The position numbers and the translations under genes were made by a program. DNA of 32,000 nt from assembly GCF_033126985.1 (NCBI RefSeq), contig NZ_AP024714.1, forward strand, positions 1,472,990 through 1,504,989. The letters run 5' to 3'. Source of the stretch: Methylomarinovum caldicuralii. GTDB lineage: Bacteria > Pseudomonadota > Gammaproteobacteria > Methylococcales > Methylothermaceae. Below are positions 1-16,790 of this stretch, in pieces; positions within the stretch are counted from its first letter, which is position 1; every line of letters starts with the position of its first letter. Under the pieces are notes generated by a model. The model was not told where the DNA came from. It did no database searches and saw nothing but the letters and a program-made list of their open reading frames with translations.

Positions 1-1191
1 GCGGCGCTGCGGCAGGTGGAACAGGCCCTGGAGGAGGCCGACCTGATTCTTTTCCTGGTCGATGCCCGCGAGGGGCTGACCGCCGCCGACGAGGACATCG
101 CTGCGCGATTGCGCCGCCTGGACAAGCCGGTACTGTTGGTCATCAACAAGATCGACGGCGAGGATCCGGCCCTGGCGGCGGCGGAGTTTTCCGTGCTGGG
201 ATTTGCGGAGCCGGTGATGATCGCCGCCGCCCATGGCCGCGGCACCGCCAAACTGCTGGCGCGTATCGAGGCGCTGCTGCCGCCGGCGCCGCAGAGCGCC
301 ACCGAAGCGGACAGGGACGACGCCATCCGGGTTGCGGTCATCGGCCGTCCCAACGTCGGCAAATCGACGCTGGTCAACCGCCTGCTGGGAGAGGAGCGGG
401 TGGTGGTGGCCGACCATCCCGGCACCACCCGCGACGCCATCGAAATCCCCTTCGAGCGCGACGGCCGCGCCTTCGTGCTGATCGACACCGCCGGCATCCG
501 CCGCCGGGCGCGGGTGGAGGAGGCGGTGGAGAAGTTCAGCGTCATCAAGGCGATCCAGGCGATGGAGCAGGCCGACGTGGTCGTGTTCCTGATCGACGCC
601 TCCGAGGGCATCACCGACCAGGACGCGCGCCTGCTCGGGATGGTGCTCGAAGCCGGCAAAGCCCTGATCATCGGCCTCAATAAATGGGACGGGCTTTCCC
701 GGGAGCAGAAGCAGAAGGTTCGCGGCCAGCTGGAAACCCGGCTGCAGTTCGTCGATTTCGCCGAAAAACTGCCGATCTCCGCCCTGCACGGTACCGGGGT
801 GGGGGACCTGTTCGATCGGATCGCGCCGCTTTACGAACAGGCCCAGGTTGAATTCGGCACCTCCGAACTGACCCGGATCCTGCAGGACGCGGTCATATCC
901 TATCCACCGCCGCTGGTGCGCGGGCGGCGCATCAAGCTCAAGTTCGCCCACCAGGGCGGCAAGAAGCCGCCGCTGATCGTCATCCACGGTAACCAGACCG
1001 AGCGGGTGCCGGCCAGCTACCGGCGTTATCTCAACCGCAGTTTCCGCGAGGCGCTGGGGATCAAAGGGACGCCGCTGCAACTGGAATTCCGTTCCAGCGC
1101 CAATCCTTTCGCCGGCCGCCGCAACAAGCTCACCCCCAGGCAGCTGCGCAAACGCCAGCGGCTCCTGCGTCACGCCAAGAAGGGGCGTTAG
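1..1191 (+). CDS. der: Ribosome-associated GTPase Der/EngA (5' end cut by the window edge)
   Basis: Frame is open from base 1; the track start at 16 is an internal GTG. Contains the end of GTPase domain 1 (NKIDG). Contains a complete GTPase domain 2 ([17 protein letters not shown]), then a KH-like C-terminal domain and a basic tail. Stop TAG at 1189-1191. Confidence 0.9.
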
Positions 1192-2786
1192 CGGCGATAG
1201 ATCCGAGCCAGCAAATCGTCCTCTCCGGCGGCTTCCGGGGTGGCGGAGGCTTGGCGCAATAGCGCGAGCTGCGTTTGTCCCTGTTGCCGCAGTGCCTCCA
1301 GCTCCGCTTCCAGATCCTGCAATTGGGATACGACCTCGGCCTCGATTTGCTCGAATCCCCGGTAAATGCCGGCACGAATGCCGCTTTCGGCCACCTTCTC
1401 CAGGGAAGGTTCGAGCAGGCGGTGGAGTAGAAAGGGAATCAGACAGGCCAGGCCAATGAGCAACAGGCTGTGGACGGCGAAATTGAGTCCCAGATATTCG
1501 CCTTCCCCGGTAAAGCCGCGGTAGTACCTTGCGACCACCTGCCAGGCGACCCAGCCTCCGGCGGCCAATGGCAGGAGGTAACGCAGCGCGGCGGTGAGCC
1601 ACAGCAGTCCCCGGCGCAGGCTGTGGCCGGGACGGGCCAGGGCGGCACGGACCGTGCGCTGGACCTGGTCGATCAGGATGCGGTCGAGACGTTTCCTGAC
1701 AGGCTCCAGACGCTGTTTCAGGGACGCGGCGGGCAGACCCCGTTCTCCGGCTTCCAGCACCAGCCGGTCCAGCGCGTCCTGCAGGTGCTTCTGACTCCAC
1801 AGATCCCAAAGCAGCGTCTCGCCGGAATTTCCCTGCCCGGATTTGAGCCGTTTCTGGCCCTTGCCGGCGATTTCCCGGGCCAGGGCCTTGGTGGGCCATT
1901 CCAGGGAAGGCGCCAGCGCGTCACAGGTCTGACGCCAAAGCCGTTGCCATTGTTTCACCAAGGGTGCGACGCTTTCGGGATCGAGTTTCCGCACCAGCCG
2001 CTCAATGCGGTCGGCCAGTTCCTGCATCCTTTGGCTGCGGTTGCGCTGTTGCAGGTGCTCGGCGCCGCCGTTTCTGGCCAGCCGGGTGAGGATTTCCTCC
2101 AGTTTGCCGAAGTCGTCCGGGCGGCGCCGGCTGAGGTCTTCACGGCTGTCGCAACGCAGCACCACAGGCGCCTTGAAGCCTGCCTGCCGCAACATCCGGG
2201 TGAAATCCTCGATCTGGGCCTCGTGTCCCTGGTCCCAGTGGTTCATGACGAACAGCCAGCCGTGTCGGTGACCGAAGCGTTGCAGCATCTGCCAGCCGGT
2301 ATCGTCCTTGTAGCGTTCCGGGCTGACCACGTAGATCAGGACGTCCACGTGGGGCAGGCACTGGAGCACCAGTTCACGGTTGCTTTCCTCGACGCTGTCG
2401 ATGTCGGGCATGTCGATCCAGACCACGTCGCGGCGGTTGGGATTCGCGTGGCGGGCCAGGCGCAGGTGCGCCAGGGGCAGCTGGTGTTCGAGGGCTTCAG
2501 TGGGCAGGGACCGGTGCAGATAGACCGTGACCTCCCGCGATGTCGGCCGCTCGATGCCGGTGCGGGCGACCGCTTCCCCCGCCAGGCGGTTGAGCAGGGT
2601 GCTTTTGCCCACGCCCGTGCCGCCGAAGAAGGCGACGATCAGCGGGGGATGCTCCACCTCGAACAAGGGGCCGCCGTCATCGCGGGCGGCGGAAAGATAC
2701 CGCTCCGCTTCTTCAGGGGTGATGAAGCCTGCGGCGGCAAGATGCTGGAACCACTGGGAGAGACGCTCAAAAGAGACGGAGTCCAT
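1188..2786 (-). CDS. Membrane-anchored P-loop GTPase of unknown function, paralogue of the upstream gene (dynamin-like architecture)
   Basis: 532 aa. G1 GGTGVGKST (nt 2598-2624), G3-like DMPD in WIDMPDIDS (nt 2403-2414), G4-like NHWD. Long helical region. Two hydrophobic helices near the C-terminus ([25 protein letters not shown] and [19 protein letters not shown]), then a coiled-coil-like tail. ATG 2786 is preceded by AGGAA and overlaps the upstream gene by 20 nt. I cannot assign a characterised family from memory. Confidence 0.6.
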
Positions 2787-4494
2787 AACGGCGTTCCTGC
2801 AGCTGTTGATCGACGGCGGTCAGGGTCTCGGCATCGAAGCCGAAGCGGTAGGCAGGGTCGATGGCCCCGGGCAGTTGGCGCAGGCGCTGGCCGAGCCGCG
2901 CTGCAAGCATGTTTTGGACCGCCTCCAGTTGTTGTTGTTTGAGGCGGGCGGCGACCCGCTCCATGTATTTTCCCAGGGCGGTTTCCGACAGCCACGAGGT
3001 CAGCGACAGGACCGCCGGGGCCAGGAAAAAATCGTGCGGTCCGATGCCGCCGGTCTGGAGCAGCAGGGCCAGTCCGGCAGCATCGGCGCTGAGCCGGGTG
3101 GCGCGCAATGCATTGAGGGTGACCGGCATTTCCTTGAGTTTTTCGTAGAGTTCCCGGGCGGCCGCTTCCACCTGGGGCTGAAATTCCCGGTAATAACGGC
3201 CGGCATCCTGTTGGAAGGCATCGAGCGTATCCGCCATGGTTTCCTGATAGTGCCGGGACAGGGACTGCCACCACGGCTGGGCCAGTTCGGAGGGCGGGGG
3301 TTCGGCCAACACCTGTTGCAACCGGCGCAGGGCGTGCTCGACGCTGTGGATCAGCACCCGCAGTTCCTCAGGGATGGCCTGGTCGTGTTTGCCCTTTCCC
3401 AGCAACTTGCGCAGCGGCCAGGTCAAGGTCCGCCGCATCCACAGCATCGGCTTGCCGATGCCGGGAAGTTCCAGCAGGATCAGCAGTTCCGCCAGCGCCC
3501 GCTGGAAGGTTTCGTAGGCGATCGGATGGTCGAGGAAGTCGTGGCGGTAGATTTCGATGGCCTGGACCAGCGCTGCCTCGACCTGCCTGCGCCAGGCTTT
3601 ATCTGCGGCGATTTCCGCCTCCAGCGGCTGCCGCCAGGCGGGCCAGTAGCGGCGGGCCAGTTCGAGGATCCGCCTGTCGCGCTGGCGGCGCTGGCGTTGG
3701 GCGAGCGGCAGGCGCTCGAGCAAAGCGGCCCGCACCTGGGCCCCGGCCTGGCGGCGTCCTTCCTCATCCTGCCAGTAGGGCAGTGGGATCACCGGTGGCG
3801 GTGGGTCTGCGCGGTGGCCGCGCCATTTCTCGTTCCAGGATCGCAGCAGGGTGTCGCGCCCCTTCGGAGTGACCTTGTTGAGGCAGACCAGGACCGGCTG
3901 CCCGAGGGGTTCGAGCAGGGTGAGCATGTCCCACACCGCCCGGTCGGCGTACTTGTCCTTGCTCACCACCACGAGCAGGAGATCGGCCAGTGCGGCGGTG
4001 CGCAGAACCCCATGCAGATAATGGCGGGCCCGCAGGGAATCGAAGTCCGGCGTGTCCCACAGGGTCAGGGCGGGAAGTTCCGGGTGGCCTGAGACCGGTT
4101 CGACGGCAAAGTGCGTGTAGCGGTCCGCAGGCAATTGTTCCCGCGGCAGGCGCCGGTAACCTTCGAAGTAGGCATCCAGCCAGTCGGCAGGTTCCGCCCG
4201 GTGGGCGAATCCCTGGGGGTGCACGGTGTAGCCGGCCAGGGGGCTGACGCCGGCCGCCTCGGTGTCGAGGATCAGGTTGACGATGCTGCTCTTGCCCGCC
4301 TGGGTCGGGCCAACGACGGCGACCTGCAGGGTGTGGTCGGGCGGCAGTTCGGTCTTGGCCAGGGCGGCCCGGGTCAGCTCCAGGGACGGTTCCAGCTCTG
4401 TCAGGTGCCTTGCCAGCGGGGATTCGGCAGGCAGGTGCGCCTGCAGGGCGCGGCTTTGCTGCCGGTACCGGTCGAGAAAGGCTTTCAGTTCCAA
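2767..4494 (-). CDS. P-loop GTPase of unknown function, paralogue of the downstream gene (dynamin-like architecture, no clear TM helix)
   Basis: 575 aa. G1 GPTQAGKSS (nt 4288-4311), G3-like DTPD in LWDTPDFDS (nt 4045-4056), G4-like NKVT. Shares with the next gene the block W-x-D-x-P-D-x-DS ... VVS-x(3)-Y-x-D-x(2)-W-x-ML. Long helical C-terminal two thirds with one hydrophobic or amphipathic stretch (GLALLLQTGGIGPHDFFLAPAVLSLTSWL). The only in-frame start before the P-loop is TTG at 4494, 2 nt after the upstream stop, with no obvious SD, so the start is uncertain. Confidence 0.55.
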   Translation of the reverse strand: MELKAFLDRYRQQSRALQAHLPAESPLARHLTELEPSLELTRAALAKTELPPDHTLQVAVVGPTQAGKSSIVNLILDTEAAGVSPLAGYTVHPQGFAHRAEPADWLDAYFEGYRRLPREQLPADRYTHFAVEPVSGHPELPALTLWDTPDFDSLRARHYLHGVLRTAALADLLLVVVSKDKYADRAVWDMLTLLEPLGQPVLVCLNKVTPKGRDTLLRSWNEKWRGHRADPPPPVIPLPYWQDEEGRRQAGAQVRAALLERLPLAQRQRRQRDRRILELARRYWPAWRQPLEAEIAADKAWRRQVEAALVQAIEIYRHDFLDHPIAYETFQRALAELLILLELPGIGKPMLWMRRTLTWPLRKLLGKGKHDQAIPEELRVLIHSVEHALRRLQQVLAEPPPSELAQPWWQSLSRHYQETMADTLDAFQQDAGRYYREFQPQVEAAARELYEKLKEMPVTLNALRATRLSADAAGLALLLQTGGIGPHDFFLAPAVLSLTSWLSETALGKYMERVAARLKQQQLEAVQNMLAARLGQRLRQLPGAIDPAYRFGFDAETLTAVDQQLQERRYGLRLF

Positions 4495-4496
4495 AA

Positions 4497-5183
4497 TTAC
4501 GGTTTCGGTAGTTCTTTGGGTTCTTCCAGGGTGCGGATGAAGCGGTCCGCCTGCTGGATGGACTGTTCCATGACCTGGATCATCGCCGCGATGTCGACGC
4601 TGACGTGGTTCAGTTCATGCTGCAGGGCGGCGATGGCCCGGGCGTTGAGGTTGTGCTTGAGAAACAGAACCTGGTCTCGGAAGGCGTTGAGGACCGGGTC
4701 GATGCGGCTTTCCGCCTTGCGCATGGCGCCGATGAGCTGTTTGTAGTGGCGCTGGGTCAGCCTCAGCTTCTGACGGCTCTTGCTGCGCAGGCTGCGGTTG
4801 GTGTAAAGCGCCAGCTCGTCCTCCCATTCGGAGAACAGGGATTCGGCCAGGGATTCAATGGTGTCGATGTGGTTTCTGACTTCCTCGGCCTTCTGTTCGC
4901 TGTGGTCGAATTCCCGCTTGAGGGCGCGGTAGTAGCTGGCGAGGCTGCCGCCGTCGTAGGCGATCAGGGCGCTGAAGCGTTCCAGGGTGGTCTGGAGCTG
5001 TTCCTTGGTTTCCTCCAGGCCAGTGCGGGCATCCTCCACCCGGGCGACGAGGAAATCGCGCTTGTGGGAGCCGGTGGTCGATTCCGCCATCCGGTAATAG
5101 GCCTGGCGGATCCGCCCCAGCACGAACCGCCCCAGGCGTTGGGACAGGGTGCGGCGGCGCTCCGCACGGACAGGGAGTTTCAT
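4497..5183 (-). CDS. DUF2959-family all-helical protein
   Basis: 228 aa. The blocks AYYRMAES..HKRDFLVARVEDAR, LFSEWEDELALYTNRSLRSKSRQKL, MRKAESRIDPVLNAFRDQVLFLKHNLNA match my recollection of the gammaproteobacterial DUF2959 family. The N-terminus is basic, with no hydrophobic signal or lipobox. The stop TAA (4497-4499) is 2 nt from the next gene start. Confidence 0.6.
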   Translation of the reverse strand: MKLPVRAERRRTLSQRLGRFVLGRIRQAYYRMAESTTGSHKRDFLVARVEDARTGLEETKEQLQTTLERFSALIAYDGGSLASYYRALKREFDHSEQKAEEVRNHIDTIESLAESLFSEWEDELALYTNRSLRSKSRQKLRLTQRHYKQLIGAMRKAESRIDPVLNAFRDQVLFLKHNLNARAIAALQHELNHVSVDIAAMIQVMEQSIQQADRFIRTLEEPKELPKP

Positions 5184-5245
5184 GGGCTGATGGACAAGCG
5201 ATTACAATGACGTTTCAACATTCTAACATTGGTCCCAGCCGCGCC

Positions 5246-6967
5246 ATGGCCCTCAGTAACAGCGAAATCGCCGATCTTTTCGACGAACTGGCCGACCTCC
5301 TCGACATCGAGGGGGAAAACCCCTACAAGGTCCGCGCCTACCGCAACGCCGCCCGGAGCATCCGCAGCCTGCCCCGCAGCCTGGCGGAGATGGTCGCAGC
5401 TGGGGAGGATCTGACCCGGCTGCCCGGTATCGGCGAGCGCATCGCCCGGAAGATCGAAACCGTCGTCAAAACCGGCAAGCTGCCCCAGCTGGAACAGGCG
5501 CTGGCGCGCACGCCGCCGACCCTGCTGCAGCTGCTGAGGATCGAGGGTCTGGGGCCGAAACGGGTCAAAGCCCTGTTCAGCGCCCTGAACATCCGCACCC
5601 TGGAGGACCTGGAGCGGGCCGCCCGCAGCGGCAGGATCCGCCGGTTGCCAGGATTTGGACCCAAAATCGAGGCATTAATTCTCAAACATCTGGATCAGGC
5701 CCTGGAAGGGGAGCGGCGCTATCTGCGCTTCGAGGCCGAGGACATCGCCACCGCCCTGATCGCCCACCTGCGCCAGGCGCCGGGGGTCGACCGCATCGAG
5801 GTGGCCGGCAGCTACCGGCGCTGGAAGGAAACCGTGGGCGATCTCGACATCCTGGTGACGGTTCAGGGGGATTCTCCGGTCATGGACCGGTTCGTCACCT
5901 ACGAGGGGGTGGCGGAGGTGCTGTCCCACGGCGGTACCCGTTCCAGCATCCGCCTGCGCAACGGCATGCAGGTGGATCTCAGAGTGGTGGCGAGCGAGAG
6001 TTTCGGGGCGGCGCTGCAGTATTTCACTGGCTCCAAGGCCCACAACATCGAGATCCGCACCCTGGCAGTCAAGCAGGGGCTCAAGATCAACGAATACGGG
6101 GTGTTCCGCGGCGAGAAGCGGCTCGCCGGCGAGGCCGAGCGCGACGTCTACGCCTGCCTGGGACTGGCCTACATCGTACCCGAGCTGCGCGAAGGCCGCG
6201 GCGAGGTGGAAGCCGCTTTGGAGAACCGCCTCCCCAAACTGGTGGAACTGGCCGACATCCGCGGCGACCTGCACGCCCACACCAAGGACACCGACGGCCG
6301 CGACGACCTGGAGACCATGGCTCAGGCGGCCAAAGCGCTCGGCTACGAATACCTGGCGATCACCGACCATTCGCGCCGGGTCACGGTGGCCAGGGGCCTG
6401 GACGAAAAGCACCTGCGGGCCCAGATGGAGGCGATCGACGCCCTCAACGAACGTCTGGAAGGCATCACTCTGCTCAAGGGCATCGAAGTGGACATCCTCG
6501 AGGACGGCACTCTGGATCTGCCCGATTCGGTGCTGAAGGATCTGGATCTTCGGGTCTGCTCGGTCCATTACCAGTTCAATCTGTCCAAACCCAAACAGAC
6601 CGAGCGCATCCTGCGGGCGATGGACAACCCCTATTTCAACATCCTGGCCCATCCCACCGGGCGTCTCATCAACAAACGCCGTCCCTACGCCATCGACCTG
6701 CCGCGGATCATGGCCGCCGCCAAAGAGCGCGGCTGCCTGCTGGAGATCAACGCCCAACCGGAACGCCTCGATCTCAACGACGAGCATTGCCTGATGGCGC
6801 GGGATCTTGGGGTCGGGCTGGTGATTTCCACCGACGCCCACACCGCCGCCGGCCTGCAGCTGATGCGTTACGGCGTGGCCCAGGCGCGGCGCGGCTGGCT
6901 GGAAAAGACACAGATCGTCAACACCCTGCCGCTGGCGCAGCTGAAACAGGTTCTGACGCGCCCATGA
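5246..6967 (+). CDS. polX: DNA polymerase X family protein with C-terminal PHP (3'-5' exonuclease/phosphoesterase) domain
   Basis: N-terminal HhH region (EIADLFDELADLLDIEGENPYKVRAYRNAARSI). Nucleotidyltransferase core GSYRR..ETVGDLDILV plus VDLR, so the Asp triad is present. PHP motifs GDLHAHT and TDH. The start was chosen at MALSNSEIA by comparison with other bacterial PolX N-termini. The track start ATG 5207 is part of a TACAAT -10-like hexamer and remains an alternative. Confidence 0.85.
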   Translation: MALSNSEIADLFDELADLLDIEGENPYKVRAYRNAARSIRSLPRSLAEMVAAGEDLTRLPGIGERIARKIETVVKTGKLPQLEQALARTPPTLLQLLRIEGLGPKRVKALFSALNIRTLEDLERAARSGRIRRLPGFGPKIEALILKHLDQALEGERRYLRFEAEDIATALIAHLRQAPGVDRIEVAGSYRRWKETVGDLDILVTVQGDSPVMDRFVTYEGVAEVLSHGGTRSSIRLRNGMQVDLRVVASESFGAALQYFTGSKAHNIEIRTLAVKQGLKINEYGVFRGEKRLAGEAERDVYACLGLAYIVPELREGRGEVEAALENRLPKLVELADIRGDLHAHTKDTDGRDDLETMAQAAKALGYEYLAITDHSRRVTVARGLDEKHLRAQMEAIDALNERLEGITLLKGIEVDILEDGTLDLPDSVLKDLDLRVCSVHYQFNLSKPKQTERILRAMDNPYFNILAHPTGRLINKRRPYAIDLPRIMAAAKERGCLLEINAQPERLDLNDEHCLMARDLGVGLVISTDAHTAAGLQLMRYGVAQARRGWLEKTQIVNTLPLAQLKQVLTRP

Positions 6968-10217: not shown

Positions 10218-10921
10218 CCGACCAGCCGGGCCAGGGCGTCGCGGTCGAGAATCCGGACCCGTTTGCCGTCGAGCTCGATCCAGCCCTCCCGTTCGAACTG
10301 CTTGAGGGTGCGGCTGACCGTGGCCAGGGCCAGATCCAGGTGGTTTCCCAGTTCCTGGCGGGTCAGGCCGATGGAGAACTCCTCCCCGGAAAAACCGCGG
10401 AAGGCATAACGGCGGGACAGGTCGAGTAGAAAGGCGGCCAGGCGCTCCTCGGCCGGTTTCTTGATGAAGACGGTCTGGTCGCGCTGGCTGGCGAGGGCGT
10501 CGCTGGCGTGGCGCAACATTTCCCCGAGCATTGTCGGGATGCGGAAACAGATGCGGGAGATTTCCTTGGCCGGCAGCTCGCAATAGCTGACCGTGTCCAG
10601 CGCCTGGGCGGAACAGCGGTAGCGGTTGTCCGCCAGGGCATCGAAGCCGACCACTTCCCCGGGAAGCAGCACCTGGAGGATGTGTTCCTCGCCTTGGTCG
10701 TCCTGATAGATCAGCTTGGCGGTGCCGGATTTGATGGCGATCAGGCCGTGGAAAGGATCGGCGGCGCGGAACAGGAATTCTCCCTTCCGCAATGCCTTGC
10801 GGCGCTCGACCACATCTTCAAGCTGACTGACTTCCTCGCGGGTCAGCCCCCGGGGGAAGCATACGGTTCTGAAACCGCAATTGTGACAAGTGACTTGCAG
10901 TTTTTTGTGCAAAGTCGTCAT
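10214..10921 (-). CDS. fnr: FNR-type [4Fe-4S] oxygen-sensing Crp/Fnr family transcription regulator
   Basis: N-terminal C-x2-C-x5-C (C12, C15, C21) plus C114, with the same 93-residue spacing as E. coli FNR C29 to C122. cNMP-like beta-roll. C-terminal HTH LTRQELGNHLDLALATVSRTL. Ala replaces the conserved Glu of the E--SR recognition motif. Confidence 0.85.
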   Translation of the reverse strand: MTTLHKKLQVTCHNCGFRTVCFPRGLTREEVSQLEDVVERRKALRKGEFLFRAADPFHGLIAIKSGTAKLIYQDDQGEEHILQVLLPGEVVGFDALADNRYRCSAQALDTVSYCELPAKEISRICFRIPTMLGEMLRHASDALASQRDQTVFIKKPAEERLAAFLLDLSRRYAFRGFSGEEFSIGLTRQELGNHLDLALATVSRTLKQFEREGWIELDGKRVRILDRDALARLVG

Positions 10922-11051
10922 GTATCCGAGCCAGGAACGTTTCCGGGTAATGATACACGACCTGAGCGCTCAGGAAATGCTTGAAAATCGTTCGTTTCTG
11001 TCACAATATCAATCTTATACCGTTATTTTTACTATCAACTCTAAACACAAA

Positions 11052-11894
11052 ATGAACTTAAACCAAGCAGAAGAGAACCTCATTCACAGGTTTCAAGCGC
11101 TGCGGGAAGCGATCCAGGATTTCGTCGTCCAGCTGAATCAGGAAAGCCGCAGGGCCTGGGTCTTCGATCTAGCGCATCGCGAATACCACGATGCGGAGGC
11201 CAGAAGCCAATTGATCCAGATCCTGACGCGGCTGGAATATCCGGACAACCGCGATGGCCGGGAAACCGATCCCTGTCCCGGCATCATCGGGGCAGGGCCC
11301 AGGACGCTGGCGCTGGCCGGCGCCCTCAATCAGGCCCGGGATGCCTTCAAGCAGGCGGTGCTCGCGATCAACAGTCATGACAGGGAACGGTCCCGGCGCC
11401 TGATGGCCGCCCAGGGCTTTGCCCGCCTGCATTTCAAACAGCTGTACCGTCATCAGCCGATTCTGCTGCGCAAACCCTGTTCCATCCGCTTTACCTGGGG
11501 AGCGACACGCTCGATCAAGCGTATCAGCCGCCAGGAGGCCTACCGCAGGCTGACGGCGCTGGCCGGCGACGATCCATCGCCCGGTTACCTGAGACAGCTG
11601 GAGCTTCTGGCCCAGCATCCCAAGGATGAACCCATCGCCATCGTGCAGGACCTAAAACCGCATATCAAGGCCAACGTCTGCTGGATTCAGGGAAGCGGCC
11701 AGGATCGTCAGGTCATCCGCAAAATGATCAGCGCGCCGTTGGCGATTCTGATCCCGCTGGACCCGGGTGAGGACTTGCCGCAGCATAGCGCCGCCTATCC
11801 GGAGGCGCGCAAACCGAGAAAGCCGCGCGCCGATACCAGGATCGAGCGGGAGCTGTTTTTACCGTCGATCCGGGGTCACCGTTACTGCCGGTAA
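11052..11894 (+). CDS. tus: Tus-family DNA replication terminus site-binding protein homologue
   Basis: 280 aa from MNLNQ. Hand alignment to E. coli Tus (recalled) is collinear end to end. [22 protein letters not shown] aligns with RLNTTFRQMEQELAIFAAHLEQ. PGIIG aligns with [29 protein letters not shown] aligns with [53 protein letters not shown] aligns with [36 protein letters not shown] aligns with LIIPRLHLYV. The track start at 10890 would overlap fnr and adds non-homologous residues. No SD is seen before 11052. Confidence 0.7.
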   Translation: [280 protein letters not shown]

Positions 11895-12016: not shown

Positions 12017-12721
12017 ATGACCCAGTCACTGCAGGCGCTGAAAACCCACAGGGACACCGAGGACCGCCAGGCTTTCAACGAAGTCCTGCGGCAGTTTCTG
12101 CCACAGCTCAGGCCCTATGTCGCCGCCCGCCTCCGGTACGCCGAACACGCGGGCCTGATTCCCCCGCGAATGTACTTTCCCAGTGACATCGTGGACGAGA
12201 TCTATCTGGAAGTGTTCGAGCATTTCAGCGATGCCGATCTCGATCCCAAAAAACTCAAGATCAGGCTGTTCAAGCTGGCCGACGCCAAACTGGAAAAAAT
12301 CCTCAAGGAAGAAGCCCGGTGGCAGGAACGCAAGGTTCCCATCGAGGACATCGTCCGGGAGGAACTGAAATCGCTGGAGGAAATCTTCTACCCGGAGGAA
12401 ATGCTCGACGACATCGAGTACCGCCAGGACGAATACCGCCCCAAACTTCTGTTGCTGGAAGAAGGCTTCGAGGGCGACCTGCTGGACTTCCTCGAGCTGG
12501 ACCGCAGCCTGCGCCAAGAGGCCAGGAACCGCCAATTGCTCGCCCGGGCTTACGAGAGTCTGCCGCCGTTGAGCCGGATCATCCTGGAGCTGAAAGTCAA
12601 CGGCAACCTGACGGTGGAAGAGATCGCCGATGTCCGGGAGATGGATGTGGAGGAAGTCGAGGCGGGTCTGGAGGCGGTGAAAAGGCGTTTCCGCCAGGCT
12701 TTGGGGCAGGAAGCCGCTTAG
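12017..12721 (+). CDS. Sigma-70 family (ECF-like) RNA polymerase sigma factor with a long acidic sigma2-sigma4 linker
   Basis: AAGGAG about 10 nt upstream of the ATG. Region-2-like segment AFNEVLRQFLPQLRPYVAARL...DIVDEIYLEVFEHF. Region-4-like HTH LPPLSRIILELKVNGNLTVEEIADVREMDVEEVEAGLEAVKRRFRQAL. An acidic linker of about 65 aa lies between them. No anti-sigma candidate is adjacent. Confidence 0.65.
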   Translation: MTQSLQALKTHRDTEDRQAFNEVLRQFLPQLRPYVAARLRYAEHAGLIPPRMYFPSDIVDEIYLEVFEHFSDADLDPKKLKIRLFKLADAKLEKILKEEARWQERKVPIEDIVREELKSLEEIFYPEEMLDDIEYRQDEYRPKLLLLEEGFEGDLLDFLELDRSLRQEARNRQLLARAYESLPPLSRIILELKVNGNLTVEEIADVREMDVEEVEAGLEAVKRRFRQALGQEAA

Positions 12722-15302: not shown

Positions 15303-15371
15303 CTTCAACTCCCGGCTTGAATATTAGGTATCGATTATAAATGTATTGACTATGGACAACACGAACGAAGT

Positions 15372-15385
15372 TTGATTACAATCAA
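15372..15385. promoter_or_regulatory. Perfect FNR/ANR box TTGAT-TACA-ATCAA
   Basis: Exact match to the palindromic consensus TTGAT-N4-ATCAA, in the AT-rich divergent intergenic region. It is 70 nt from the gnd ATG and 94 nt from the ATG of the 55-codon ORF. By my estimate about 0.03 such perfect sites are expected by chance in 32 kb. Confidence 0.7.
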
Positions 15386-15478
15386 CTCCGCCGAAATTCG
15401 GCGTTTCAGATTGTAACCGATCTGGAAGTCCCGGAAACGGGAGATAACAACGAACCAACCATATATGAGGTAGGAGAA

Positions 15479-15646
15479 ATGGCAGAGCAAAATCAGGAAC
15501 AGGAAAAAGACAATTTCTGGCTGATTATCGGCCTGATCATCGCCGCCGCGGTCGTGGGCGTGATCCTGCTCAAGAAGGCGGAAACATCTTCCGTTCCCTA
15601 TCAGGCCTGGGAAGAAGTCCGCAAGGAAGAAATGGGTAAAAAATAA
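15479..15646 (+). CDS. Small single-pass membrane protein (55 aa), not in the ORF track
   Basis: Sequence MAEQNQEQEKDNFWLIIGLIIAAAVVGVILLKKAETSSVPYQAWEEVRKEEMGKK. Strong SD (GAGGTAGGAGAA, with AGGAG 4 nt before the ATG). One clear TM helix with charged flanks. Stop TAA at 15644-15646, followed 30 nt later by a perfect terminator hairpin. I recall no homologue. Confidence 0.6.
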   Translation: MAEQNQEQEKDNFWLIIGLIIAAAVVGVILLKKAETSSVPYQAWEEVRKEEMGKK

Positions 15647-15673
15647 CAACTTCCTCTTTTCCCTTTCCTTGAG

Positions 15674-15700
15674 AAAGCCCCGCGATCGCGGGGCTTTTTT
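15674..15700. terminator. Bidirectional rho-independent terminator (small ORF and ychF)
   Basis: AAA-GCCCCGCGA/TCGCGGGGC-TTTTTT. The 18-nt palindrome at 15677-15694 is perfect, with an A-run and a T-run on either side. It overlaps the ychF stop codon (15699-15701). Confidence 0.8.
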
Positions 15701-16790
15701 ACACGTTGAAGCGGAAGTGGACCACGTCGCCTTCCTGCATGACGTAATCCTTGCCCTCCAGGCGCCATTTGCCGGCCTCCTTGGCCCCCTGCTCTCCCCC
15801 GTGGCGGACGAAATCCCCGTAGGCGATGACCTCGGCGCGAATGAAACCCTTCTCGAAATCGCTGTGGATGACGCCGGCCGCCTGGGGCGCGGTAGCCCCC
15901 TGCTTGACGGTCCAGGCGCGGACTTCCTTTTCTCCGGCGGTGAAGAAGGTCTGCAGCCCCAGCAGCCGGTAAACCGCCCGCACCACCCGGTCGAGACCGG
16001 CTTCCGCCAATCCCAGCTCCTCCAGGAAGGCTTCCCGGTCCGCCTCGTCCAGCTGGGAGATTTCCGCCTCGATCGCCGCGCACACCGGCACCACCTGGGC
16101 ACCTTCGGCGGCGGCGTGGGCCCGCACCTGTTCCAGCAGCGGATTGGCATCGAAGCCGGATTCGTTCACGTTGGCGACATACAGCACCGGCTTGGCGGTC
16201 AAGAGATGCAGGCCACGCAGCAGGGCGCGCTCGTCTTCGCCCAGATCCAGGCTGCGCACCGGTTTGCCGGCGTCCAGATGGGCGGCCACACTTTCCAGCA
16301 GCGCCTTTTCCGCCCGCGCGGCCTTGTCGCCGGATTTGGCCGCCCGCGTGACCCGCTGTAATGCCCTGTCCACCGTCTCCATGTCTGCGAGCACCAGTTC
16401 GGTGTTGATGATCTCGATGTCGCGCACCGGATCGACCGAGCCGGCCACGTGGGTGACGTCGCCGTCCTCGAAGCAGCGGACCACGTGGGCGATAGCGTCG
16501 GTTTCACGGATGTGGCCGAGGAACTGGTTACCCAGCCCCTCCCCCTTGGAAGCCCCGGCCACCAGCCCCGCGATGTCGACGAACTCCACCGTGGTCGGCA
16601 GGGTACGTTGGGGTTGGACGATCTCAGCCAGGGTCTTGAGCCTGGGATCGGGGACCGGCACCACCCCCACATTGGGATCGATGGTGCAGAAGGGATAGTT
16701 TTCCGCGGCGATTTCCGCCCGCGTCAGCGCGTTGAACAGGGTGGACTTGCCGACGTTGGGAAGCCCGACGATACCGCAATGTAATGCCAT
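15699..16790 (-). CDS. ychF: Redox-regulated ribosome-binding ATPase YchF
   Basis: N-terminal [18 protein letters not shown]. Coiled-coil insert. C-terminal TGS-like domain ([32 protein letters not shown]). Confidence 0.95.

Follow-up and report, generated by a model that had tools for sequence, protein, structure and literature searches.

A 32,000-nucleotide (nt) stretch of the Methylomarinovum caldicuralii genome (NZ_AP024714.1, positions 1,472,990–1,504,989 of the forward strand; hereafter the window) encodes two adjacent GTPases, named here A and B, which are a sequence-divergent pair of dynamin-like proteins (DLPs) lying outside any sequence-defined DLP family; paired bacterial DLPs as such are already known. 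The organism is a thermophilic methanotroph of the Methylococcales, and B is 100% identical to its protein MIT9_P1461. On the minus strand the two genes are preceded by that of a DUF2959 protein, and the coordinates of the three genes and their features are collected in Table 1; residue numbers are those of the window proteins. We consider it reasonably probable that A and B are co-translated and form a heterotypic pair of DLPs belonging to a subfamily not characterised before, and that the DUF2959 protein is a lineage-specific addition to the pair.

Dynamin-like fold of A and B

Alignments of about 120 homologues per GTPase (121 A-type and 120 B-type sequences) were built for structure prediction and for the measurement of conservation. 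In the AF2 model of A (pLDDT 88.1, pTM 0.83), two helices at the N-terminus lead into an alpha/beta G domain, which is followed by long helices, one of them with 78 residues. The model of B (pLDDT 88.4, pTM 0.77) contains two N-terminal helices, an alpha/beta G domain, a helical trunk, a hairpin and a long terminal helix. More than 300 helical residues follow the G domain in either model, and both models have the overall fold of the dynamin superfamily, namely a large G domain with a helical neck (bundle signalling element) and a trunk or stalk. When the models were compared with the PDB by Foldseek, A matched Drp1, the Campylobacter jejuni DLP pair (5owv_C, template-modelling (TM) score 0.40), MxB, IniA, BDLP, Mgm1/OPA1 and mitofusin/Fzo1. 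The best match of B was BDLP 2j69 (E 3.5e-11), followed by 5owv_C/5oxf_C, IniA and mitofusins. The IRG, GIMAP and EHD proteins ranked below the dynamin superfamily in these results. Thus, the dynamin-like nature of A and B is supported by their modelled fold only.

The sequence searches returned matches around the P-loop. In Pfam, A matched MMR_HSR1 (E 8e-9, residues 57–207) and scored 21.1 bits with Dynamin_N (PF00350), under the gathering cut-off of 27, and B matched Dynamin_N in short stretches only (E 2.8e-9, 37.7 bits against the cut-off of 27) and also MMR_HSR1 (E 8e-7). No NCBIfam family claims A or B; Der, Era, YlqF and others matched the P-loop only and far under their cut-offs, the best score being 30.5 bits against the Der cut-off of 306.7, and the dynamin model of NCBIfam gave E 0.099. 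The PADLOC matches to LeoA and LeoBC span just 17–45 P-loop residues with 12–26 bits. Single-sequence and profile searches of the PDB with A and B found P-loop neighbours only, and Der, Era, YlqF and EngB were the best sequence matches there and in NCBIfam. Beyond the P-loop, the family of A and B is covered by no Pfam, NCBIfam or PADLOC model, and their assignment to a characterised family by sequence was rejected, as Pfam, NCBIfam, PADLOC, PHROGs and PDB all gave matches of P-loop level only. The literature search yielded nothing relevant on DLPs in methanotrophs or on GTPases linked to intracytoplasmic membranes.

The predicted membrane elements of the two proteins differ in strength. The B hairpin, at the tip of the trunk, consists of model helices 389–425 and 434–458, with hydrophobic cores at about 393–415 and 432–456, Kyte-Doolittle maxima of 1.24 for the first helix and 2.39 for the second, and conserved residues P406, G433, F436, H439 and P451. 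Together with the long helix that follows, its arrangement in the model is reminiscent of the paddle of BDLP or of the anchor of mitofusins. In A there are only weaker hydrophobic patches, at 333–352 and 486–503. The only low-confidence loops of its model, 358–370 and 472–484, flank the tip segments, and the tip is conserved (with G482, G483, G485, D488, P493 and E504 invariant) and has a hydropathy below that of the B hairpin. A preliminary description of this locus had proposed, for both GTPases, a dynamin-like architecture with more than 300 helical residues after the P-loop domain, a two-helix hydrophobic hairpin in one of the two and not in the other, and no ready assignment to a characterised family, and these points are borne out by the models, by the hydropathy profiles, in which the B hairpin is membrane-grade, and by the database and literature searches.

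Paralogous G domains with altered nucleotide motifs

The same description had called A and B clear paralogues, and this was found to hold for the G domains and not for the helical halves. The two proteins aligned by BLASTP with 27% identity across 147 aa (E 2e-7) and the two families by hhalign over 152 columns (probability 98.6%), in both cases in the G domains only, and no similarity between the helical halves was detectable by BLASTP or by profile–profile comparison. Paralogy over the full length was rejected, since the alignment is confined to the G domain.

Both G domains carry a common hallmark, D-x-P-D-[FI]-D-S (W146-DTPDFDS in A and I124-DMPDIDS in B). The Asp at the glycine position of DxxG is invariant in 121 A-type, 120 B-type and 31 distant B-type sequences and is present in orthologues from distant contigs. 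In A, residues W146, D147, T148, D150, F151, D152 and S153 are invariant in the 121 sequences, and the DTPDFDS motif, which comes after model strand E143–147, occurs also in six distant A orthologues. In B, residues D125, P127, D128, D130 and S131 are invariant in the 120 close and 31 distant sequences. The G1 motif and the conserved switch I Thr (T90 in A, T82 in B) are intact. G4 deviates, A having an invariant N206-K207 without the Asp and B having N-[H/Q]-W-D. The canonical G1–G4 set (GxxxxGKS/T, switch I Thr, DxxG, N/TKxD) is recognisable in both proteins, with different residues at defining positions.

The DxxG form of G3 is canonical in the studied DLPs, including those of C. jejuni, as judged from general knowledge of the family and from the motif alignment described in PMC6104087. 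The DxPD switch II of A and B suggests that their catalytic cycle may differ from that of the studied dynamins. The invariant D-x-P-D of both partners is in effect an experiment of nature on a motif held to be universal among GTPases. In the wider and improbable proposal given below, the mechanism of hydrolysis or of conformational coupling would be distinct from that of all studied dynamins.

Conservation of the A–B pair

The alignment of A was searched against one genome per GTDB species, which confirmed 342 relatives, and the best 80 loci were inspected. These best 80 of the 342 all belong to Methylococcales, bar a few oddly labelled metagenome-assembled genomes (MAGs), and include Methylothermaceae, Methylocaldum, Methylumidiphilus, Methylomonas, Methylobacter, Methylovulum, Methylomicrobium, Methyloprofundus, Methylomarinum, Methyloglobulus and Crenothrix. 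A and B were neighbours on one strand in about 77 of the 80 Methylococcales loci, that is, in essentially every non-truncated one, and they overlapped by exactly 20 nt in 48 of the 55 loci in which the B start could be placed by alignment. The tight coupling of the two GTPase genes that had been proposed from the window is thus kept across Methylococcales. The orthologues of A, with 35–93% identity, have the same start region.

The exhaustive profile search with the B alignment returned 366 clusters (50% identity) at E<=1e-30, at least 150 of them full-length matches, and 83 of 150 family representatives were just 30–40% identical to any Methylococcales B. The named members come from MAGs labelled Arenicellales, Thiotrichales, Gammaproteobacteria, Burkholderiales, Phycisphaerae and Planctomycetota, the taxon labels outside Methylococcales being those of the MAG records. 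When eight non-Methylococcales contigs were looked up, A (581–626 aa) was found directly before B (544–589 aa) in all seven that include the upstream side, with an overlap of 1 or 8 nt, and the eighth (L086) ends just upstream of B. Six of these contigs were confirmed as carrying orthologues, with 35–41% identity to the window proteins. The two DLP genes are thus paired, and their stop/start overlap is kept across phyla, from Methylococcales to Planctomycetota. Because the pair is kept in the non-Methylococcales contigs without DUF2959 and with otherwise unrelated neighbours, the conserved module is the A–B pair. A restriction of the pair to methanotrophs, and hence a role specific to intracytoplasmic membranes, was weakened as an explanation by the 83 of 150 distant members and by the MAGs labelled Arenicellales, Thiotrichales, Burkholderiales and Phycisphaerae.

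Some further observations were made on these loci. The 20-nt overlap codes at once for the conserved A tail YGL[RK]LF and for the N-terminus of B, and in Methylocaldum-type loci A lacks the YGLRLF tail and is separated from B by a gap of 3–6 nt. The Phycisphaerae-labelled contigs (L082:710–1572, L085:3002–4029 and the contig of P0487) have conserved divergent neighbours, a DUF6677 gene and an open reading frame (ORF) of 83–84 aa, to which a Zn_ribbon_8 gene is added in one of them. The protein P0377 (990 aa) shows a B-type match over residues 6–550 followed by about 440 extra C-terminal residues and is possibly a fusion. A gene for a predicted lipoprotein of about 140 aa (MKKLSTLLIILACTALIAC..., L010:5194–5652, minus strand), which has no Pfam match, lies directly upstream of A and divergent from the pair. 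It was present in 65 of the 80 Methylococcales loci and is a more frequent companion of the pair than DUF2959 (52/63 against 38/63 loci); the window and the Methylothermaceae loci yielded no homologue.

The DUF2959 protein and its link to the pair

The assignment of the first gene to DUF2959, made in the preliminary description, was confirmed by a full-length match to PF11172 (E 1.4e-72, 244 bits against a cut-off of 26.8, profile positions 1–190 of 190). The protein is all-helical and shares with the canonical members the conserved YY...G-x-HKR and LKHNLNA motifs. No PspA_IM30 match was obtained in Pfam at E<=0.1, the DUF2959 profile gave coiled-coil noise only when searched against the PDB (mainly coronavirus spike HR1), and the literature search found nothing relevant on DUF2959 function.

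A metagenomic sample of the family was collected with a degenerate DNA pattern for L-[FY]-L-K-H-N-L-N-A, and 119 of the 120 stretches obtained (L088–L207) encode DUF2959. Among ordinary DUF2959 proteins with complete N-termini, from outside Methylococcales, 79 of 84 are predicted lipoproteins, bearing a classical signal peptide with a lipobox Cys 3–4 residues before the conserved YY (...LAGCQSAYY...). The N-terminus of the window protein (MKLPVRAERRRTLSQRLGRFVLGRIRQAYY) is basic and without a hydrophobic segment, and a hydrophobic N-terminus was likewise absent from six of six Methylococcales-type metagenomic proteins and from 42 proteins of the genome loci. The signal-less N-terminus is basic and probably amphipathic, and the DUF2959 beside the pair belongs to a subclade whose location has probably shifted to the cytoplasm, away from the periplasmic face. 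This loss of the signal peptide by the Methylococcales DUF2959 makes a functional link with the cytoplasmic DLPs possible, though it does not demonstrate one, and it gives the first functional handle on a family without literature.

The three genes had been put forward earlier as one operon and candidate module, with a lack of conservation named beforehand as one finding that would speak against it. Such a lack was found in part, the order A–B being kept and the trio only partly supported. DUF2959 preceded the pair, in the same orientation, in 38 of the 63 Methylococcales loci having at least 2 kb of upstream sequence, and it abuts A only in Methylothermaceae, namely in four loci (4–16 nt) and in the window. 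Elsewhere the gap between DUF2959 and A was about 540–740 bp in the nine measurable loci, and apparently so in most Methylococcales loci with DUF2959. As the opposite-strand lipoprotein gene lies in this interval, DUF2959 cannot share an operon with the pair in those genomes. From the DUF2959 side, neither A nor B was found near any of the 32 metagenomic genes with at least 3 kb downstream, and A was seen only in two Methylococcales-type loci (L147 and L189) of the metagenomic set. In L091, a signal-less Methylococcales-type DUF2959 (2130–2828) stands beside the upstream AA_kinase-type gene without a DLP pair, and the downstream sequence to 10699 encodes an ABC exporter, an MmeI-family restriction-modification enzyme and Lon. 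DUF2959 as a core third subunit was therefore rejected, from the GTPase side by the loci that lack it, from the DUF2959 side by the 0/32 count, and by L091. It is a lineage-specific neighbour of the pair, and may be a cytoplasmic accessory or a simple syntenic neighbour.

In Methylomonas-/Methylobacter-type loci (L028, L032, L051 and L061), ATP-grasp_3, hydantoinase_A-, AA_kinase-, His_biosynth- and PabB-like genes lie upstream of DUF2959, about 1–6 kb before A, a set which we take to resemble the genes of the tetrahydromethanopterin pathway.

Comparison with known systems and proposed function

Most bacterial DLPs are encoded as side-by-side pairs in an operon (PMC6104087). The C. jejuni DLP1 and DLP2 (Cj0411/Cj0412; PDB 5owv and 5oxf), which share 24% identity, tether membranes as a 2:2 tetramer (PMC6104087). 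A and B resemble them in having two DLP genes side by side in one operon and partners about 24–27% identical in the G domain only, and the C. jejuni chain 5owv_C/5oxf_C was the best rigid-body fold match of both A and B (TM 0.37–0.40). The differences are that their sequence likeness is limited to the P-loop (the sole match being 5owv_A, E 0.002, about 80 residues), that A and B with 575 and 532 aa are smaller than the C. jejuni proteins (84.5 and 71.2 kDa), that G3 is DxPD instead of DxxG, and that B has a mitofusin-like hydrophobic hairpin. A heterotypic complex would be expected for A and B as for C. jejuni DLP1/2.

Nostoc punctiforme BDLP1 (PDB 2j68 and 2j69) gave the best Foldseek E-value for B and has the same layout of G domain, neck, trunk and a hydrophobic tip or paddle between trunk helices. 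Unlike B, BDLP1 has about 690 aa and a transient paddle, the TM-score is only about 0.27 as the conformations differ, and no sequence homology was detectable. The mitofusins/Fzo1 and Mycobacterium IniA, large GTPases with helical bundles, ranked high in both fold searches, and in the mitofusins a permanent two-helix membrane anchor close to the C-terminus precedes a long helix, an order of elements shared by B. The kinship with these is at the level of fold only. The mitofusins are eukaryotic outer-membrane proteins and IniA is actinobacterial, and their G motifs are canonical, unlike those of A and B. Eleos/LeoABC has tandem bacterial DLP genes like A and B, and the weak PADLOC matches to it are confined to the P-loop; it differs in that no LeoC-like third GTPase is found here and that the context is a conserved housekeeping one. 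The canonical DUF2959 proteins (PF11172) share the full-length profile with the window protein, and differ in the lipobox Cys (79/84) and in not standing beside the DLP pair (0/32), the window and Methylococcales clade having no signal peptide and a basic N-terminus.

By analogy with C. jejuni DLP1/2, Streptomyces DynA/B and the fused Bacillus subtilis DynA, A and B would assemble as a hetero-oligomer at the inner membrane, on its cytoplasmic side. The hairpin would make B the permanent anchor there, and A would be recruited via B and its own tip. Nucleotide-driven hinge movements would then tether, fuse or repair membrane, as proposed here from the example of C. jejuni DLP1/2. The context, chromosomal and mostly housekeeping in the loci examined, is more in keeping with membrane maintenance than with a mobile element for defence.

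Several observations weigh against a heterotypic DLP pair with an added DUF2959. The Foldseek TM-scores are low (0.2–0.4) without a rigid match, although modest scores are explained by the hinged nature of these proteins, for which conformational flexibility is expected. The sequence searches tie A and B to known DLPs through the P-loop only. With the Asp in place of the DxxG glycine in both proteins, and the NKxD Asp missing in A, GTP might be bound or hydrolysed atypically or not at all. The first helix of the B hairpin reaches a Kyte-Doolittle value of only 1.24 and may span the membrane or merely dip into it. DUF2959 was absent within 6 kb in 25 of the 63 Methylococcales loci, and it was found in no non-Methylococcales pair locus examined, either by Pfam annotation or by hidden Markov model search of six-frame ORFs.

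The regulatory GTPases of Era/Der/HSR1 type, acting in ribosome or RNA transactions, would account for database names such as “50S ribosome-binding GTPase”, for the convergence of the genes on der, for the MMR_HSR1 matches of both A and B over the Pfam cut-off, and for Der, Era, YlqF and EngB being the best NCBIfam and PDB sequence matches. We regard this as very unlikely, because these matches span only about 25–80 P-loop residues and lie far under every equivalog cut-off (for example 30 bits against 307 for Der), neither protein has a KH domain or any other that binds RNA, over 300 residues are folded as a DLP trunk with a membrane hairpin in B, and the adjacency to der is limited to the Methylothermaceae loci. 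A dynamin-type defence against phage or membrane damage, comparable to Eleos/LeoABC or B. subtilis DynA, in which A and B would seal or remodel a membrane attacked by a phage or a pore-former, is an unlikely role in our judgement. DynA is reported to protect against phage and pore-forming agents (PMC12998192; bioRxiv 10.1101/2025.03.27.645684), the LeoA-like architecture is structurally near C. jejuni DLP2 (PMC6104087), and PADLOC did give weak matches to its LeoA and LeoBC models. These matches, however, cover just the 17–45 P-loop residues with 20–26 bits, and the full-length, three-gene composition of LeoABC is not seen, no LeoC-like third GTPase being present at the locus. The conserved gene order in Methylococcales and the housekeeping neighbours are unlike a variable defence island, and neither plasmid copies nor meaningful phage-family matches were found. 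A mobile or defence-island origin was also rejected on the lack of plasmid matches and the housekeeping context.

The signal-less DUF2959 could instead be a partner of the pair, as adaptor or regulator, in a three-component machine specific to Methylococcales that shapes or maintains the intracytoplasmic membrane stacks of type I methanotrophs. The best 80 of the 342 genome loci are from many genera of Methylococcales, DUF2959 precedes the pair in the same orientation in 38 of 63 and directly adjoins A in the window and in four Methylothermaceae loci, the loss of the lipoprotein signal carried by 79 of 84 other members removes the compartment mismatch with cytoplasmic DLPs, and no biogenesis factor of such a kind for intracytoplasmic membranes surfaced in the literature searched. 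The pair is nevertheless present, and DUF2959 missing, in MAGs labelled Thiotrichales, Arenicellales, Burkholderiales and Phycisphaerae, DUF2959 where measurable is about 540–740 bp off with the opposite-strand lipoprotein gene between, L091 retains a signal-less DUF2959 with no DLP pair downstream, and synteny within a single order may reflect no more than an inherited arrangement of genes, so that we hold such a machine to be doubtful. A wider proposal, that a deep cross-phylum DLP subfamily with a distinct Asp-switch-II mechanism has in Methylococcales recruited the cytoplasm-relocated DUF2959 into a three-part intracytoplasmic-membrane machine, appears to us improbable.

The heterotypic DLP pair with DUF2959 as a lineage-specific neighbour remains the preferred interpretation. 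Bacterial DLPs are few in number and poorly understood, and most work on them concerns only a handful of organisms. No factor shaping the intracytoplasmic membranes of methanotrophs surfaced in the literature searched, and a conserved membrane-anchored DLP pair is a concrete candidate for one. If the pair is a generic membrane-repair DLP, it would be an incremental addition to a known class.

Locus layout and genomic setting

The close packing of three minus-strand genes, their divergence from polX and the overlap of the last stop codon with that of der, which had been read earlier from the window, were all confirmed in the ORF list and in the sequence. The junction of DUF2959 and A reads TAA-tt-TTG, with a gap of 2 nt, from which DUF2959 is predicted to be co-transcribed with the pair in the window, and the A and B genes overlap (Table 1). 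The B stop TAA (1188–1190, minus strand) and the der stop TAG (1189–1191, plus strand) have two bases in common, the genes being convergent.

Table 1. Genes, motifs and structural elements of the A–B locus in window coordinates
Feature	Position	Strand	Remarks
DUF2959 protein	4497..5183	-	ORF listing; 228 aa, ATG start
GTPase A	2767..4494	-	ORF listing; 575 aa, TTG start
GTPase B	1188..2786	-	ORF listing; 532 aa, ATG start
A/B overlap, 20 nt	2767..2786	-	B ATG lies within the A codons for C-terminal RYGLRLF and stop (TAT-GGA codons)
A G domain, about residues 56–238	3781..4329	-	strand/helix pattern of the model and MMR_HSR1 match
A G1/P-loop GPTQAGKS, residues 62–69	4288..4311	-	invariant in 121 sequences
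A non-canonical G3/switch II D147-T-P-D150-F-D-S	4036..4056	-	Asp at the Gly position of DxxG
A hydrophobic/Gly-rich tip, residues 481–508, TGGIGPHDFFLAPAVLSLTSWLSETALG	2971..3054	-	candidate membrane-binding tip, together with residues 333–352
B G1/P-loop GGTGVGKS, residues 55–62	2601..2624	-	invariant
B non-canonical G3 D125-M-P-D128-I-D-S	2394..2414	-	Asp at the Gly position of DxxG
B hydrophobic helical hairpin, residues 389–458	1413..1622	-	predicted membrane anchor or paddle
B C-terminal helix, 53 residues, 462–514	1245..1403	-	model

The polX ATG (5207, plus strand) is 23 nt from the DUF2959 ATG (5183, minus strand), the two genes forming a divergent pair. The polX start may instead be Met14 (5246), which would put 62 nt between the two starts. 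Whichever polX start holds (5183–5246), the divergent promoters must fall within or overlap coding sequence. No sigma-70-like promoter was found by consensus scan, and terminator-like sites were not clearly over the shuffle expectation.

The window is ordinary chromosomal housekeeping DNA and includes der, polX, genes for a DegP-like protease, an ABC-2 transporter and a Crp-family regulator, and gnd, ychF, manC, purF, cvpA, rarA, lolA, ftsK, trxB, aat, bpt and pfk. No plasmid match for DUF2959 or B was found in PLSDB, and the PHROGs search gave nothing meaningful. Three window ORFs of 234–334 aa, at 10890–11894 (plus strand), 12017–12721 (plus strand) and 15350–16150 (minus strand), have no Pfam match at E<=1e-5 and sit in the two kilobases of lowest GC content in the window (0.577 and 0.580 against about 0.65).

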